Under the pieces are notes generated by a model. It worked only from the letters and a program-made list of their open reading frames with translations, did not search any database and was not told where the DNA came from. The translations under genes were made by a program, and so were the position numbers. A DNA stretch of 63,795 nt, the filler included, from Globobulimina sp. (Eukaryota): assembly GCA_003354225.1 (NCBI GenBank). It is 50 parts of 50 records of this genome, joined end to end, with 100 filler letters (N's around TTAATTAATTAA, not from the genome) between each part and the next. Parts side by side here need not be neighbours in the genome. Positions count along the whole stretch, not along the records: positions 7,675 to 8,853 come from PIVH01021580.1; 49 more parts are not named here. One strand, given 5' to 3'. Positions 7,575-58,686 of the stretch are shown here, in pieces. The first letter of the stretch is position 1. Every line of letters begins with the position of its first letter.

Positions 7575-7730
7575 NNNNNNNNNNNNNNNNNNNNNNNNNN
7601 NNNNNNNNNNNNNNNNNNTTAATTAATTAANNNNNNNNNNNNNNNNNNNNNNNNNNNNNNNNNNNNNNNNNNNNATCCAAGTGCAGTTTTTGAAGAAGTT
7701 TAAATAATTAAGTCAAGTTTTTGGAAAAGC

Positions 7731-8588
7731 ATGGCTTACCTTACACAGCCTGAGCCAGTTAAATAATTATCTATACATAGTAACAGCAGATTTATATAGA
7801 TATAAAATAAAAACAACAGACAAGAATTATGTTATTAGGCGCTCAATCGGTTGGGAAAAGTTCGATAACCATTCGAATGGTTGCGAATGAATACAATCCA
7901 CCGTATGATCCCACAATTGAAGCCTGTTACACGTTACTATTTTATATCAATATATGCAATTTCTAAAACATAAAACCTAAATTACAACAAACATTGCAAC
8001 AGATGCACCATATGTGTTGGCAATGAAAATGCGCTGTTGGATATATACGACACAGTCGACATTGCAACACACGAACTGCTTTCGCATCGGTCGACGTCTT
8101 TTGTTCGTGCTCTAGATACATATATGTTAATTTATGATGTTACATGTTTGCAATCATTCGAATATGTTCAACGAATATACACCAAAATATGGAGACATAG
8201 AGATGGAGAAAGAATAAATCTAATTTTAGTCGGAAATAAATCAGATTTAATTTGCTCGACATATTCAAAAGTGAACCATTTGGTGAATGGATTTATAAGA
8301 AATATTGAAGAGACATTCTTGATCAACATAGCCAGGGATATTAACAGCATTTGTTGCAGTTTCTTTTTCATAGCAAAGATAGAAGTGACCTCTCAAATGG
8401 CAGAGGAAGTTGCGGAATCATGGCATGTACCTTCCATTCAAACATCTGCCAAAACGGGAGAGAATGTCTTGAAAGCATTTGAAACATTGGTAAAGGAAAC
8501 CAAAAAAATGATAAACTTACCAGATCCGCGTAAACCTACTCGTTGTTCATGTTGTCAATGTGTTAATTGTACATGTGTTATAATATAA
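7731..8588 (+). CDS. Divergent Ras-family GTPase with internal insertion and CAAX; introns 7758-7819 and 7933-8002
   Basis: GAQSVGKS, YDPTIE, DTVD (degenerate G3), NKSD, TSAK, C-terminal CVII. Confidence 0.88.
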
Positions 8589-9398
8589 AACCAACGGTTG
8601 CCAATTGGTCCAGTTGTACATTTCTGTTGTTGTATTGTGGCGTCATATAGTTTGGCTGTCATCTGTTTCATAATACAGACCATAGTTTTAGTCCAAATTT
8701 TTTTCCCCGTCGACCTAGTAGTAGTAGTACAAAATTCAATCAGGACGTAAGTCCGATTCCAGGCTCACGGATTGCTGGAACATCCCCGTGAGGTTGTATA
8801 GGGCTCTATCGCTAGAGCCTGGAAGGAGGTGGAATTTCTTGTATTTTGCATATNNNNNNNNNNNNNNNNNNNNNNNNNNNNNNNNNNNNNNNNNNNNTTA
8901 ATTAATTAANNNNNNNNNNNNNNNNNNNNNNNNNNNNNNNNNNNNNNNNNNNNGGGCGTCGGCGTTAAGTGAAGGAGTAAAGCCACAGCCTCTTGTTATT
9001 GTGTTTGGATTTCGATAGGTATACAATAGCGAGTTAGTGGAGGGATCAGTTTGCACTGTAAAGGTTAGCGAGATTCAATATTTCTGTCAATGACTCAATG
9101 GTCATTTGAGGGAATGAAGGCAGCGTAACTTTGAAAACGCCATTTGAAATTACAATGTATTTGAAAGCATCCGAGCAATCCATTTGTTTCAGTTGTAAAT
9201 GAAATCCATTTGTTTCAGTTGCTCGCAATTTCCATTCAATAGAATTGTTTGAAACTATTCGGTTATTGTAAAACCATTCGCAGACAGATTACTTGTATAG
9301 GTATTGAAGATAATGCTGGATGTATTGCATTGAAATATGATCAGTAATATGGTGACAAGTGTTGGAAACACCATCTTTTTATACACTTGAGTCAAAGC

Positions 9399-9595
9399 AT
9401 GCAACTCGATTTTACAATATTTAAAACTAACACAACAAACTGTAATATTGATAAGAATAAAGATGAGATAATCAAAAATTGCGATCACTTATCAGTTATC
9501 ACGGATAGCATATGGCTTACGATATTACCAATTATTGTGTTCCAAAGAGAACAATGCGAATTCGGAATCGATATTTATTGAATTTTGTAGTGAGG
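9399..9595 (+). pseudogene. Frameshifted paralogue fragment of the 60808-61241 gene
   Basis: LDFTIFKT..TNCNI..EIIKNCDHL continues as RIAYGLRYYQLLC..IFIEFCS only after removing a 7-nt insertion (TTATCA-G-TTATCA, 9489-9501). Confidence 0.7.
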
Positions 9596-10232: not shown

Positions 10233-11411
10233 GCCGACGTGACCCAGGAACCGCCCATTTTCTTCCACTTCGGCTTCCTGTAACCACCTTCTTGCTTCTC
10301 TTTGGACTTCAAGCGGTGCATAAACGAGGTACAGTCGTCGCTGACGCAATTGCAACACGTATAGTCCTCAATAAATATCCATTCGTCCCATTTCTTGTCC
10401 CATCCGATGTAATGCACGAATATCGCCTGCAACTTATTCAATCTCCACAGCGCATTCTTTTGCGTGTTGTTCAGACGACTGCCGAACTCATCGTTCTCTT
10501 CAATCTCTTCACCGGCGGCTTTCACCGCTAATATGTCGGCCATGTACCACTTATTGCAACTGTCCAAGGCGCCCACTTTGGTGCCGGCTTTGAAGCGCAA
10601 CCAACGTTCGTCTTTGCGCAGGATTTTAATCTCGATTTGTACCTGGTTTGTGTCCTCGTCCTTACACGTTACCATATTCTCTTTGGTTTCTTCCAATTGG
10701 AAGTCCAATTTCTGGCGGCCGCGACCTCGCCGCTTATTCACCTTTTTCCGCCGCGTGGACGCCGCCCGCTTGCTTTTCTTGTCGTATTTGCGCTCATTGC
10801 CGTCCTCGTCGAGCTCGTAAATCACGCCAAAAGAGTCCAATTCGTCGAAGTCGACCTGGATGCACACAGTGGACGAGATTTCGTACAAAACGCGGGATAG
10901 CAGACACGATGGGTCTTTCCGCGTATATTTGACCTCTTTCATCTTCTTCATGTTGAAGGAGTTGGGTAAGGACCAATAAAAGAGGAAAATAATATTGTCC
11001 CACTTATTAAAATTGTTCCCTTTCTGCAGATTTATGGGCAAAATGGCATGGATGCCGGGCTGCAAATACCTGTTTTCGGCGTCGTTGATCAACACATTGT
11101 ACAACGACGTGGATATCGCGTTGTATTTGGTCAACATGTCCAAGACCTCGTACTTGGTGCCATATAAACCGATGGTTTGCACGTTCATTTTGCGCAATTT
11201 CTGGAAATATATGTCCTTTGCGAGGTATTTGCACGAATTGGGCACCAAAAAATTCACAAAGCGCTCGAAGTTGGTGGGGTCCAAAATATTTTTATTCACT
11301 AACGAAGCCTGCTGGTTTTCTAAGACGATTTGGATTAATTGGAAGGTTATGAACTGGTTATCGAAGATGCCAATACCGGTTACGGTCTTCTGATGGTTGA
11401 TGTTGAGGATG
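10233..11411 (-). CDS. Fragment of a large uncharacterised protein with a Tudor-knot/chromo-barrel-like domain
   Basis: Open across the contig; KVGALDSCNKWYMADILAV...IFVHYIGWDKKWDEWI; higher GC than most contigs. Confidence 0.7.
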
Positions 11412-28126: not shown

Positions 28127-29282
28127 CGGACAGCGTCTGCAGTTCACCGACCAATACCATAAGCAATGTAGCGTTTATCGTTTTAAGCGGAGGAGAGAAC
28201 TTTAATAATCAGACTGCAGGTACAGAGGATATATCATCTGTAACAGAGATAAATGTTTATGCGCCGGATGTGGACATTGATAATTATACTGCGGACGTGA
28301 ACAGATCAGACGCATATGATGACCTGAGCGGTCTCATTGTCCATTCCCGCCGTCCTCTTATTTCTCTTTCCTTTGTAGATGTCATTGGCCAATCCGTCCC
28401 ATAAGCTGAGGAACAACGCTTTGTTGTAAATGTCGGCGGAATGGTCGCTGCGCGAACGCTGCGAAAACAGCGCATCAATCTCGTCGATCCATATGATACT
28501 CGGTGCCATCTTCCGTGCTAAACTGAATAAGGCAGAGATGTATTTCTGTGAATCGCCGTACCATTTCGACATCAAACGGCTCATATCCACGTCTGCAGTG
28601 TCACGAAATTTATGGAAATTTAGCGCAGGTTATCCTTGCACAGCGTATATAGCGCCTAACTGAAGAAGGTAGCGTTGGTTTCGCGAGCAATGGCTTTGGC
28701 CATCATAGATTTCCCAGTTCCTGGCGGTCCGTGGAACAGCACACCTAATGGCGGTGCGCAAAGACGCGAGGAACCGGTCAATTGAGGGTAGATTAAGGGG
28801 ACTAGCACAGTTTCGGTCAGATCGCGTTTGATGTGCTCTAAGCCGCCGATGTCGGAGAATTTGACGTCGATGGAAGCGGGCAATACGATGAGGTCTAACA
28901 AGGAGTCTTCGTACGTGTTGGTGTTGAATGAGGTGATTTTGCGACCGGATTTCTTCATTTTTTTGAGTAAGACACGTTTGCAATGTTCTGCAATGTCTTT
29001 GCGGTTCTGCTCAGGGTCGGTTTGCTGGGCGATTAGGGATTTGAACATATAGCCCAAGGCCGCTAAGGAGCCGCCGATTAATAGAAACTCGGAGATTATG
29101 GACCACCAATCTTTGGAATGTGTGATGACTAATTGCTGAGCGGCGTTGGGGATGGCGGACGATGCGTTTTTGTGAGAGGAGCGCAGGTTTAAGTGCGGAG
29201 GGCGACTGTTTGTGGTTGATGTTGCTGTTGAAAATAAAGAATCGATTGGTACATTGGTTTGAGATGAATTAAAGTGTGCCAT
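28127..29282 (-). CDS. ATAD1: ATAD1/Msp1-type membrane-anchored AAA+ ATPase, intron-containing, 3'-partial
   Basis: N-terminal TM, FSDIGGL, GPPGTGKS, SKWYGDSQK, IIWIDEID, FLSLWDGL. Confidence 0.88.
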
Positions 29283-29544
29283 GATAATGTTGCAGAGGTT
29301 TTGANNNNNNNNNNNNNNNNNNNNNNNNNNNNNNNNNNNNNNNNNNNNTTAATTAATTAANNNNNNNNNNNNNNNNNNNNNNNNNNNNNNNNNNNNNNNN
29401 NNNNTAATGATTTCCAGGGGTTTCTGAGCGTTACCGCTCCCATAGGTTGCAAGAGAATATAATTTATATCATATCATATGAGACTGCAACTAAATCAAAA
29501 TTAATGCAGAAATAATTTATACATTTATACATTTATTATTAATC

Positions 29545-31960: not shown

Positions 31961-32428
31961 TCTAATGGAATCGTGAAATATTATTGTCACGTTTGTGAAG
32001 TGTGGCAGTCGGTGGATAATTTCTACCAAAGTAAGATGTGTATTTGCAAAGAGTGTTATACAATGAAGTACAAAGATACGTTACGAGGATATTTAAGCGT
32101 CTTAAAAGGAAGTGCTAAAGGTAATTCCAAATTGAAAATCTGTACAAATGGAAGTCGTACGTTATTTGATTTGAGTTTTGATGATATTGTGGATATCCTA
32201 CAAAAGCAAAATTATCGGTGTTATTATTCTGGCATTCCAATGGTATTCAAAACTAACCAAAATTGGAGGTGTTCATTGGAAAGATTAGATAATATGATTG
32301 GATACACAAAGGAAAATTGTGTGTTGATATGCTTTGAATTCAATTCATTTGACAGGACTGTAAATTCTATGAACAAAGCTACTGGTTCAGCTCAATGGAA
32401 TAAAAGAAAAATTTCAATATTTTTATAG
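31961..32428 (+). CDS. HNH/His-Me-finger endonuclease-like protein, 5'-partial
   Basis: CHVC..CKEC, QNYRCYYSGIPM, SLERLDNMIGYTKENCVLIC. Confidence 0.7.
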   Translation, partial: SNGIVKYYCHVCEVWQSVDNFYQSKMCICKECYTMKYKDTLRGYLSVLKGSAKGNSKLKICTNGSRTLFDLSFDDIVDILQKQNYRCYYSGIPMVFKTNQNWRCSLERLDNMIGYTKENCVLICFEFNSFDRTVNSMNKATGSAQWNKRKISIFL

Positions 32429-32561: not shown

Positions 32562-33138
32562 ATGGCAGCTCGACAGCAACAGGTACTGCTCGTACATGGC
32601 TACATTAGAAAATGTATTAGATTGAAAGACGTATCAACTAAGCTAACAACCATATATGAGACAATAATTAAATACAGCGAACGGGTATAAAAATATATAT
32701 TACACAATAATTATATTTTGTATTTATTTGTTTACCTTCATTTACCAAAAGAAACATATAACAATCGGTTTATTTGGTTCATTCAGGACAGGCAAATCAA
32801 CCTTAGGCGGCCGAATGTGCTATGAATTTAATCGTCGAAATCATACAGATATCGATTCTGTTAATAATAACATGGAACGTGTTACAACACCAAGAGATGA
32901 GAAATGGTCGAGTTATTTCGATGAAGACGAAGAGGAACAGTTACGAATGATGACAATTCATGGAAACATGAAGGAAATCTATACATTCTCATATATCATA
33001 TCATTAATCGACACACCTGGCTATAAACAATACATCAAAAACTTTTTACGTTATATATCACAGTCTGATGTTGTAATTTTAGTATTTTCTGCAACTGATT
33101 TAATCGAAAAATATCAAACCAATATCAGATGTGTTTTT
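32562..33138 (+). CDS. Divergent eEF1A-like translational GTPase with an added N-terminal exon; intron 32685-32751; 3'-partial
   Basis: GSFRTGKST, EEQLRMMTI, LIDTPGYKQYIKN, SQSDVVILV. Confidence 0.8.
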
Positions 33139-46017: not shown

Positions 46018-46587
46018 CACGACAACACAAGCAGATGGCAGGCGTTGTACGGTTTGGAGCGCTACGACGAGGCGGTGGGCGACGCAGAAAAGGCGTTGCG
46101 TTTAGATCCGAGCAGTGCCGATTTGAAGCAGCAATTGCGAGCCGCCAAGATGGAGTTGAAAAAGTCGAAGAGGAAGAATTATTACAAGATCTTGGGAGTG
46201 GAGAAGGACGCGACGGAGAAGGAGATCAAGAAAGGCTTCCGGAAGAAGGCCATGTTGTGGCACCCGGATAAGTTTGCGTGCGGCACTGAGGAGGAGAAGA
46301 AGAGCGCGGAGGACAAGTTCAAAACTATTGGAGAGGCGTACGAAGTGTTGAAAGACCCGAAGATGAAACAGCGGTATGACAGTGGCGTGGATTGCGATCA
46401 CTTGAAAGGGGGCGGCTTCCCTGGCTTTGGCGGCGGCGGAGTCGATATTTCGCACATATTTGATTTGTTGGGCGGGATGGGGGGACATGGCGGAGGTGGT
46501 CACGGCCATGGGCACGGTGGCGGACATCCGGGATTTCAACAGTTTTCCGGAGGGAATGGACAGAATTTTTCATTTAGGTTTGGCTGA
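46018..46587 (+). CDS. DNAJC7: TPR + J-domain co-chaperone C-terminus (DNAJC7-like)
   Basis: ELKKSKRKNYYKILG, HPDK, Gly/Phe-rich tail. Confidence 0.9.
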   Translation, partial: HDNTSRWQALYGLERYDEAVGDAEKALRLDPSSADLKQQLRAAKMELKKSKRKNYYKILGVEKDATEKEIKKGFRKKAMLWHPDKFACGTEEEKKSAEDKFKTIGEAYEVLKDPKMKQRYDSGVDCDHLKGGGFPGFGGGGVDISHIFDLLGGMGGHGGGGHGHGHGGGHPGFQQFSGGNGQNFSFRFG

Positions 46588-46808
46588 TTTTGACATAGAT
46601 TGATAGAGATGAGTGGTTTTTTAACTTTTTTTTTTTGTTTTGGTTTTAATTTACTGTTCAATTTAAAATTAAGTCTTGTAGTAAAAGAGGTAAAAAGAGC
46701 GTCAGATTATTATTGTTTCTGAGAAACGAAAAAATGATAATCCCAGCGTTTTTACGTATGCTTGCTGTGTCGGATAATGCAACTCATTGATAAACTGCCA
46801 ACACTTAA

Positions 46809-47194
46809 TTACATTTGAGAATATTGTACAATTTGAAGAGTGTCATTTTTATAATAAAAATTAGCAGCAACAGCAACTTGTTTTGGAATATTTGTAAAGG
46901 CATCTTTTTGTGTTACATATTGTCCATTAATGGCAAAATTTAATGTACCTTTATATAAATTAATATCGACAGTAATAATATCACCTGTTTTATAACCACT
47001 AACTTTGTATTTAGCACTGCCGTTATTATACACATCACCTTGATAATAATAACTGTATGAATTTTCTGTAGATCCAACATAACTATTACCTGATATATTA
47101 AATGATTTATCAATTATACCAATACCCATGCCACTATTTGAACTTTTATTTATTCTAATATTTATAATATGTCTTCCTGTTTCCCAAAATGGTC
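46809..47194 (-). CDS. SPRY/B30.2 domain C-terminus
   Basis: GIGI..SYSYY..G..YKTGDIITVDINL..GTLNFAING. Confidence 0.85.

Positions 47195-57510: not shown

Positions 57511-58686
<1,176 letters not shown>

Follow-up and report, generated by a model that had tools for sequence, protein, structure and literature searches.

The stretch of 63,795 nucleotides analysed here (in the following, the window) consists of 50 contigs of 1177-1179 bp from the genome assembly of Globobulimina sp. (GCA_003354225.1), which are joined by N/TTAATTAATTAA spacers and have a GC content of 34 %. A preliminary description of this DNA had reported a short motif at three sites, attached to a Ras-like GTPase, an eEF1A-like GTPase and a ubiquitin-conjugating enzyme (E2), respectively, and had taken all three for copies of one mobile module. 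According to our analysis the three sites are not one thing: the segment in the E2-like protein is, judged by its conservation, a genuine conserved element, a 40-residue insert in the Ras-like protein is probably a copy of it, and the match in the eEF1A-like gene is probably a coincidence. Taken as a whole, we give this reading an even chance of being right. Our verdict is thus a predicted helix-loop-helix, specific to this lineage and occurring on no more than two hosts, instead of one module on three.

Site 1 (8277-8369, plus strand) encodes HLVNGFIRNIEETFLINIARDINSICCSFFF, a stretch of 31 and not 30 amino acids (aa), and site 2 (32586-32675, plus strand) encodes LLVHGYIRKCIRLKDVSTKLTTIYETIIKY; both had been placed in their correct frames. 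The start of site 3 had been set one base off: 58023-57933 on the minus strand is out of frame and contains many stops, and the correct range, 58022-57933 on the minus strand, yields a 30-residue translation. The three hosts are borne out by Pfam (Ras, 2.7e-19; GTP_EFTU, 1.9e-18; UQ_con, 3.4e-15), and none of the three motif stretches is itself covered by a Pfam family when whole open reading frames (ORFs) are searched (0 families at E <= 1). That the stretches are coding follows for the Ras-like gene from spliced contigs and for the E2-like gene from conservation in 6 of 6 relatives.

The first element belongs to a family of E2-like proteins with a long C-terminal extension. The Ubiquitin-conjugating enzyme profile (PF00179) is matched by the gene in the window, with only the C-terminal half of the UBC domain lying within the contig and the HPN region beyond its edge; this half is very similar to UBE2D-type chains of the PDB (1.6e-26; query residues 2-63 correspond to residues 88-149 of 7xed). 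No Pfam family matches the extension that follows. An exhaustive phmmer search with 240 residues of the extension against 1,835,955,588 proteins retrieved six relatives (E 2.8e-26 to 2.4e-4 at this database size of 1.84 billion). Two of them are EukProt proteins of the foraminifers Nonionella stella and Bolivina argentea, the other four stem from ENA contigs; the sole named relatives are foraminiferal, in agreement with the earlier proposal of a lineage-specific motif. A UBC domain precedes the extension in four of the six relatives, and P0004 and P0007, which give no UBC match, may be fragments. Both blocks of the motif are present in all six. The consensus of the family reads h-I-x-[GA]-Y-L-[R/x], a linker of 6-13 residues, and [IV]-P-[ML]-D-[IV]-x-x-[LI]-C-[YF]-x-[FY]-[YW]-Y. 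A more general definition by two blocks (h-h-x-G-[YF]-h-R, and D-h-x-x-h-C-x-x followed by three aromatic residues, 6-13 residues apart) describes the E2-like protein of the window and most of its relatives, with P0008 and P0009 deviating in block 1 or in the Cys. The Protein Atlas gave no usable match for the extension, and a scan of metagenome contigs gave 73 pattern matches, among which no relative was confirmed by tblastn. We regard the E2-with-extension family as new, and this as the safe result of the analysis.

Each of the three hosts had been described as lacking a canonical catalytic residue. For the two GTPases the alignments given below bear this out. In the E2-like protein a Met is found at the position of UBE2D2 Cys85 (directly before L86); since no complete codon lies between this Met and the contig edge, the loss of the Cys is uncertain. 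Among the four relatives covering the site the catalytic Cys is absent in three and kept in P0005 (VICLD), hence the motif is not confined to inactive enzymes.

The second element is an insert in a Ras-like protein. The Ras profile PF00071 is matched with 69.8 bits (cut-off 21.6), and the best PDB match is H-Ras (6.7e-16). In the alignment to H-Ras, the G1 P-loop (GAQSVGKS), the G4 motif (NKSD) and the G5 motif (TSAK) are present; DTVDIATHE aligns to DTA---GQE, leaving neither G60 nor Q61. Because both the glycine of DxxG and the catalytic glutamine are missing, ordinary GTP hydrolysis by the protein is very unlikely. Its C-terminal tail is of the CAAX type. The phmmer alignment is split into two parts, query residues 4-86 corresponding to H-Ras 45-124 and query residues 127/128-187 to H-Ras 124/125-187, which places the insert between T124 and V125 of H-Ras, in the loop after NKSD. 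The insert is real, transcribed and coding. The evidence comes from Logan contigs of public runs (X5, X6 and X7), whose RNA-like nature was judged from spliced joints. In record 9 of X5 the 70-nt intron of the gene is spliced out and 8003-8529 is unbroken, with 1 other letter and the insert retained; contigs of X6 and X7, which carry another organism label and are about 90-95 % alike, cross the insert without a gap. Compared with this relative (organism C), 18 codons differ over 8098-8500, 10 of them synonymously, and the single change within 8277-8369 is L106S in the linker, both blocks being unchanged. A search of 5.8 billion clustered proteins gave one weak relative of the protein, P0003, which lacks the insert and is a regular GTPase with DIAGQE. 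A metagenome scan with the Ras-like protein gave 263 pattern matches, none confirmed by tblastn, and the Protein Atlas returned for the insert region Ras-like or unnamed rows only (0.80-0.82, below the 0.9 mark).

Both blocks of the E2 motif recur in the insert, at nearly equal spacing (12 residues between the blocks in the Ras-like protein, 11 in the E2-like protein), which makes the insert a probable second instance of this module. It conforms to the two-block definition, and the second block (DINSICCSFFF in the Ras-like protein) occurs at these two sites only. As a control, 237 pairs of 7-mers from different contigs with a score of at least 27 were collected, and for each the best downstream ungapped 11-mer was taken: the Ras-E2 pair, with a second-block score of 31, ranks first of the 237, the next pair scores 25 and the 99th percentile is 23.6. 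With hhalign, the profile of the E2 family matches the insert over 30 columns (probability 56 %, P 1.1e-4), and among 75 ORFs of the window the Ras ORF is the best non-self match (21.9; the next scores 15.3). As far as these comparisons go, we consider the link between the two sites likely but unproven, the balance standing about even.

Several results weigh against this link and against the reading built on it. With HMMER profiles of the E2 family, the Ras and eEF1A segments obtain E-values of 0.24-0.5 or negative bits; leave-one-out hidden Markov models (HMMs) place the left-out segment only 5th or 6th among 1337 six-frame peptides of the window (E 0.35-1.1); the hhalign probability is just 56 %, for a pair that was chosen after inspection of the data; and the DNA of the two sites is unlike beyond the codons for the shared residues. 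Neither profile searches nor metagenome scans returned a further member on any other host. The structural models are of low confidence, with a mean pLDDT of 48 for the E2 extension (AlphaFold2, 7-row alignment), about 55 over the motif, and of 42 for the Ras-like protein (AlphaFold2, 2 rows). Also to be counted here is the first exon of the eEF1A-like gene, which is exon-like in composition and whose motif could be a very divergent copy. It is conceivable, then, that all likeness between hosts is coincidence, or convergence of amphipathic helices in an AT-rich genome, with the Ras insert an unrelated loop expansion and the E2 motif just a part of its own family's domain. This would agree with the fact that every HMMER-based test is non-significant, with the lack of likeness at the DNA level, with a proteome rich in I, L, F, Y and N that favours such words, and with a second unrelated triple of 7-mers in the same data (see below); it leaves aside the first rank of the Ras-E2 second block, with its spacers of 12 and 11, the hhalign P-value and the position of the Ras ORF as the top non-self match of 75, and we hold it to be somewhat unlikely.

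The third site has to be judged by its 7-residue word. The pattern L[LIV]xG[YF][IL]R occurs three times in the 110,937 six-frame residues of the window, each time in the coding frame, and shuffles of 52 long ORFs contain a mean of 0.01 occurrences per 11,655 residues. This strict pattern was written post hoc, after inspection of the data. When the choice is corrected for, by counting any triple of 7-mers from three contigs whose pairwise BLOSUM62 scores are all at least 27, 10 of 30 shuffles reach such a triple (mean 0.47 triples). A second, unrelated triple is found in the real data (KDIVEKCK, KDIAEHCK and KDVLEQCK, in unrelated ORFs of contigs 16, 23 and 42), so such words recur easily in this sequence. 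Given the shuffles and the second triple, the 7-residue word by itself is at chance level.

The eEF1A-like gene offers this word alone. Its product matches the profile of the eEF1A / EF-Tu GTP-binding domain (PF00009); the P-loop GSFRTGKST aligns to GHVDHGKST of the archaeal EF-1alpha 1jny, and DTPGY stands against DAPGH, the catalytic His of DxPGH being absent. The motif lies in a putative first exon, whose two alternative frames are interrupted by 3 to 6 stops. The GC content of this exon, 0.34-0.38, resembles that of exon 2 (0.33) and differs from that of the intron (0.16). If an alternative donor read from the sequence at 32583 were used, the motif would fall outside the exon. Only block 1 of the two-block definition is found. 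By their second block, the pairs involving the eEF1A segment come 41st and 87th of 237, exon 1 obtains an hhalign probability of 4 % with the E2-family profile (P 0.0096, 14 columns), and its score of 13.9 is rank 6 of the 75 ORFs, inside the noise. Taking these comparisons together, the match in the eEF1A-like gene is probably a coincidence. Upstream of this gene we note an ORF with many Cys residues (31961-32425; ...YYCHVCEVW...CICKECY...ENCVLICFEFNSFDRT...) to which Pfam assigns no family.

The broader proposal of the preliminary description was a single mobile module of 30-35 residues on many hosts, Ras, eEF1A and E2 among them, which would make up a large family, spread over the genome, as a mark of pseudoenzymes; a role as ubiquitin-ligase adaptor or decoy was conjectured along with it. 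In favour of the proposal are the three in-frame matches to L[LIV]xG[YF][IL]R in about 59 kb, where about 0.1 would be expected in six frames, the altered catalytic position in all three hosts and the exon-like composition of eEF1A exon 1, and the database searches that could contradict it had low power. The HMM scan that such a family calls for did not recover one. Among 76 word-sharing candidates (longer proteins), none reached E <= 10 with a profile built from the three segments, and a nine-segment profile recovered only its six training proteins from 1977 candidates, both with the limited sensitivity of profile searches, which have little power for about 40 residues against 5.8 billion sequences. 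Likewise, scanning the window's own 1337 six-frame peptides gave no fourth copy, and none in the other 47 contigs. Together with the 7-mer triples in a third of the shuffles, the lack of a second block in the eEF1A segment, its hhalign probability and the catalytic Cys of P0005, this makes the proposal improbable.

Nor do known domains account for the motif. At E <= 10, none of the nine motif segments matches a Pfam family, and a profile search of the PDB returned two viral Rep chains only (E about 1), HMMER being weak for units of 40 residues. The suggested likeness to F-box, SOCS box and LisH is unsupported, given that neither Pfam nor PDB provides a match. A literature search, covering titles and the openings of abstracts, returned no account of such a motif.

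As for the structure, AlphaFold2 predicts for the E2 extension a helix (66-80), a loop and a second helix (89-99), followed by a beta hairpin. The two-helix nature proposed earlier is in line with this, though at a pLDDT of about 55 only. The low pLDDT of both models means that the hairpin is only a prediction. If it holds, the two amphipathic, aromatic-rich helices would form a hairpin packing on the host or on a binding partner, possibly by self-association; a complex prediction with two copies of the 41-residue motif scored 0.02. In the Ras-like protein, such a hairpin would give the hydrolysis-dead G domain, anchored by a lipid, an additional surface for binding partners. A bolder version may be entertained, in which a foraminiferal docking hairpin, possibly of a divergent RIIa/DPY-30 type, has been shuffled into surface loops and termini of catalytically dead copies of housekeeping enzymes and scaffolds them jointly, namely a Ras with a lipid anchor, E2s of the UEV kind and, perhaps, a paralogue of eEF1A. 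We consider it doubtful, a conjecture with few chances.

Close to refuted is the possibility that the Ras insert is not protein but an unspliced in-frame intron: two in-frame GT..AG candidates exist (8283-8378, 96 nt, and 8271-8378, 108 nt), their removal would leave a Ras of normal length, and the insert GC of 0.31 lies between exon (0.36-0.38) and intron (0.23), but the X5 contig from which the 70-nt intron has been removed keeps 8262-8384, the X6 and X7 contigs cross it as well, the one change in 8277-8369 relative to organism C is neither a stop nor a frameshift, and the other two frames contain 6 and 2 stops.

The gene models on which these comparisons rest are listed in Table 1. Across the three models the introns are short, with a GC content of 0.16-0.24 compared with 0.28-0.42 in the exons.

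Table 1. Coordinates of the Ras-like, eEF1A-like and E2-like gene models along the window.
Feature	Position	Strand	Basis and remarks
Ras-like inferred first coding exon, MAYLTQPEP	7731..7757	+	Translation; exact boundary inferred
Ras-like inferred intron, 62 nt, GT..AG	7758-7819	+	X6 contig joins 7746 to 7820, 7 other letters between
Ras-like P-loop exon, TRIMLLGAQSVGKSS...DPTIEACY	7820..7932	+	X6 record 15 spans 7820-7932, then jumps to 8003
Ras-like intron, 70 nt, GT..AG, GC 0.23	7933..8002	+	Joint 7932->8003 in X5 (contig depth 57.7) and X6
Ras-like last exon: DTVDI, NKSD, insert, TSAK, Cys-rich tail, CVII and stop	8003..8588	+	Pfam Ras 2.7e-19; H-Ras alignment
Insert in Ras fold, 40 residues (87-126 of exon translation)	8262..8381	+	phmmer split against H-Ras
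Ras insert blocks	8280-8300, 8337-8369	+	Block 1 LVNGFIR; block 2 DINSICCSFFF
eEF1A-like putative exon 1, 41 aa, MAARQQQVLLVHGYIRK...	32562..32684	+	ATG-started open frame; 7-mer LVHGYIR 32589-32609
eEF1A-like putative intron, 67 nt, GT..AG, GC 0.16	32685..32751	+	Read from sequence; length like the other introns (70, 82 nt)
eEF1A-like GTPase exon, GSFRTGKST ... DTPGY, runs off contig	32752..33138	+	Pfam GTP_EFTU 1.9e-18
UBC (E2) domain, C-terminal half and linker	58307..58686	-	Pfam UQ_con 3.4e-15, profile positions 83-139; starts MLDIL at contig edge
E2-like putative intron, 82 nt, GT..AG, GC 0.24	58225..58306	-	Read from sequence; removal joins two ORFs in phase
C-terminal extension of E2-like protein, runs off contig	57513..58224	-	Conserved in 6 database proteins
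E2 motif	57933..58022	-	Block 1 LINGYLR 57999-58019; block 2 (11 residues) 57933-57965

Some further observations concern the Ras-like gene and its surroundings. P0003, a Rab-like protein from a JGI source, is only 27-34 % identical overall to the Ras-like protein, yet both have 17 of 18 residues in common in the stretch [IV]QTSAKTGENVLKAFET (8436-8490). A contig of X5 contains a joint 7749->7861 (window 7726-7861; CT..AG, 2 letters between, a side of 24) that would skip the ATG and the P-loop. It was judged unreliable and was not used; it may represent an alternative 5' exon, a paralogue or a mis-join. Just 3' of the gene, 8715-8795 is a high-copy repeat with a summed contig depth of about 1000 in X1 and of 136-180 in X5 and X6, flanked on either side by numerous loose ends; no Rfam family matches it, nor is it a tRNA.

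Elsewhere in the window, Pfam assigns longer ORFs to P2X receptor, SPRY, SAM, Arf, sulfatase and ion-transport domains, a set that marks a eukaryote, and scans with Rfam and for tRNAs gave no match. Contig 8 (9348-9578) and contig 48 (60805-61239) carry paralogous ORFs with the common blocks F-x-I-F-K-T-x-x-T-N-C-N-I and E-I-I-K-N-C-D-H-L, the latter ORF (contig 48) having no Pfam family. Contig 2 (1280-2458) and contig 42 (52404-53579) are each filled by a single open frame (393 or 392 aa) that matches no Pfam family; the two are probably paralogues, with the common blocks FAQFLINLLCK / YAQFLIDVLCK and ATEYIIVCKLF / ATEDKIVGQLF. Within three contigs (10233-11411, 28127-29304 and 46018-47194), some parts seem to have a higher G+C content than the remaining, AT-rich sequence and, according to the ORF list, have open frames on many strands, and the assembly may be mixed; the first contains a Tudor-knot ORF, the last DnaJ/TPR beside SPRY.

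Foraminifera are a group of ecological importance with scarcely annotated genomes. A new E2-with-extension family and a transcribed 40-residue insert in a dead Ras are the safe results for this lineage. Were the Ras insert and the E2 segment indeed one module, they would represent a case of domain shuffling into a surface loop of a GTPase, and the shared module would provide a handle on the roles of pseudo-GTPases and pseudo-E2s in foraminifers. The analysis also holds a caution: a recurring word of 7 residues in an AT-rich proteome is no evidence of a family.

A comparison with known systems yields likenesses of different kinds. Like the motif, F-box, SOCS box and LisH are small helical elements (30-45 residues), and the [IV]P-x-D-[IV] with which block 2 opens bears a loose resemblance to the LP-x-E at the beginning of the F-box; they differ in that Pfam gives no match and in that the G-Y-h-R block here stands before the P-x-D block, not after it. 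The two blocks also recall, as an unconfirmed lead, the docking helix-turn-helix of RIIa/DPY-30 (PF02197, PF05186). What we take to be common is a G-aromatic pair in helix 1 and P-x-[DE]-h-x-x-h-h-x-x-aromatic-aromatic opening helix 2, presumably with a similar spacing in the shortest members, P0004 and P0008. Against this stands that none of the nine segments matches these Pfam families (E <= 10) and that there is no PDB match, HMMER being weak at 40 residues. A second comparison is with the UEV pseudo-E2s (Mms2/Uev1, TSG101). As most members of the E2 family lack the catalytic Cys (it is replaced in three of the four relatives and apparently in the window copy too), they resemble this type, and P0008 has a weak UEV match (E 0.059). 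In contrast to UEV proteins, the UBC half encoded in the window has a very high similarity to active UBE2D-type enzymes (1.6e-26), one relative keeps the Cys, and every member of the family continues at the C-terminus with an extension of more than 250 residues that belongs to no Pfam family. Finally, Rho GTPases have an insert helix of about 13 residues in the loop after NKxD, between strand beta5 and helix alpha4. The insert described here is longer (about 40 residues) and sits in a Ras-like host without the DxxG glycine and the catalytic Gln. The likeness is one of position: in both cases an extra helical element, here a predicted one, occupies the same loop of the GTPase, between the residues corresponding to T124 and V125 of H-Ras in our case.

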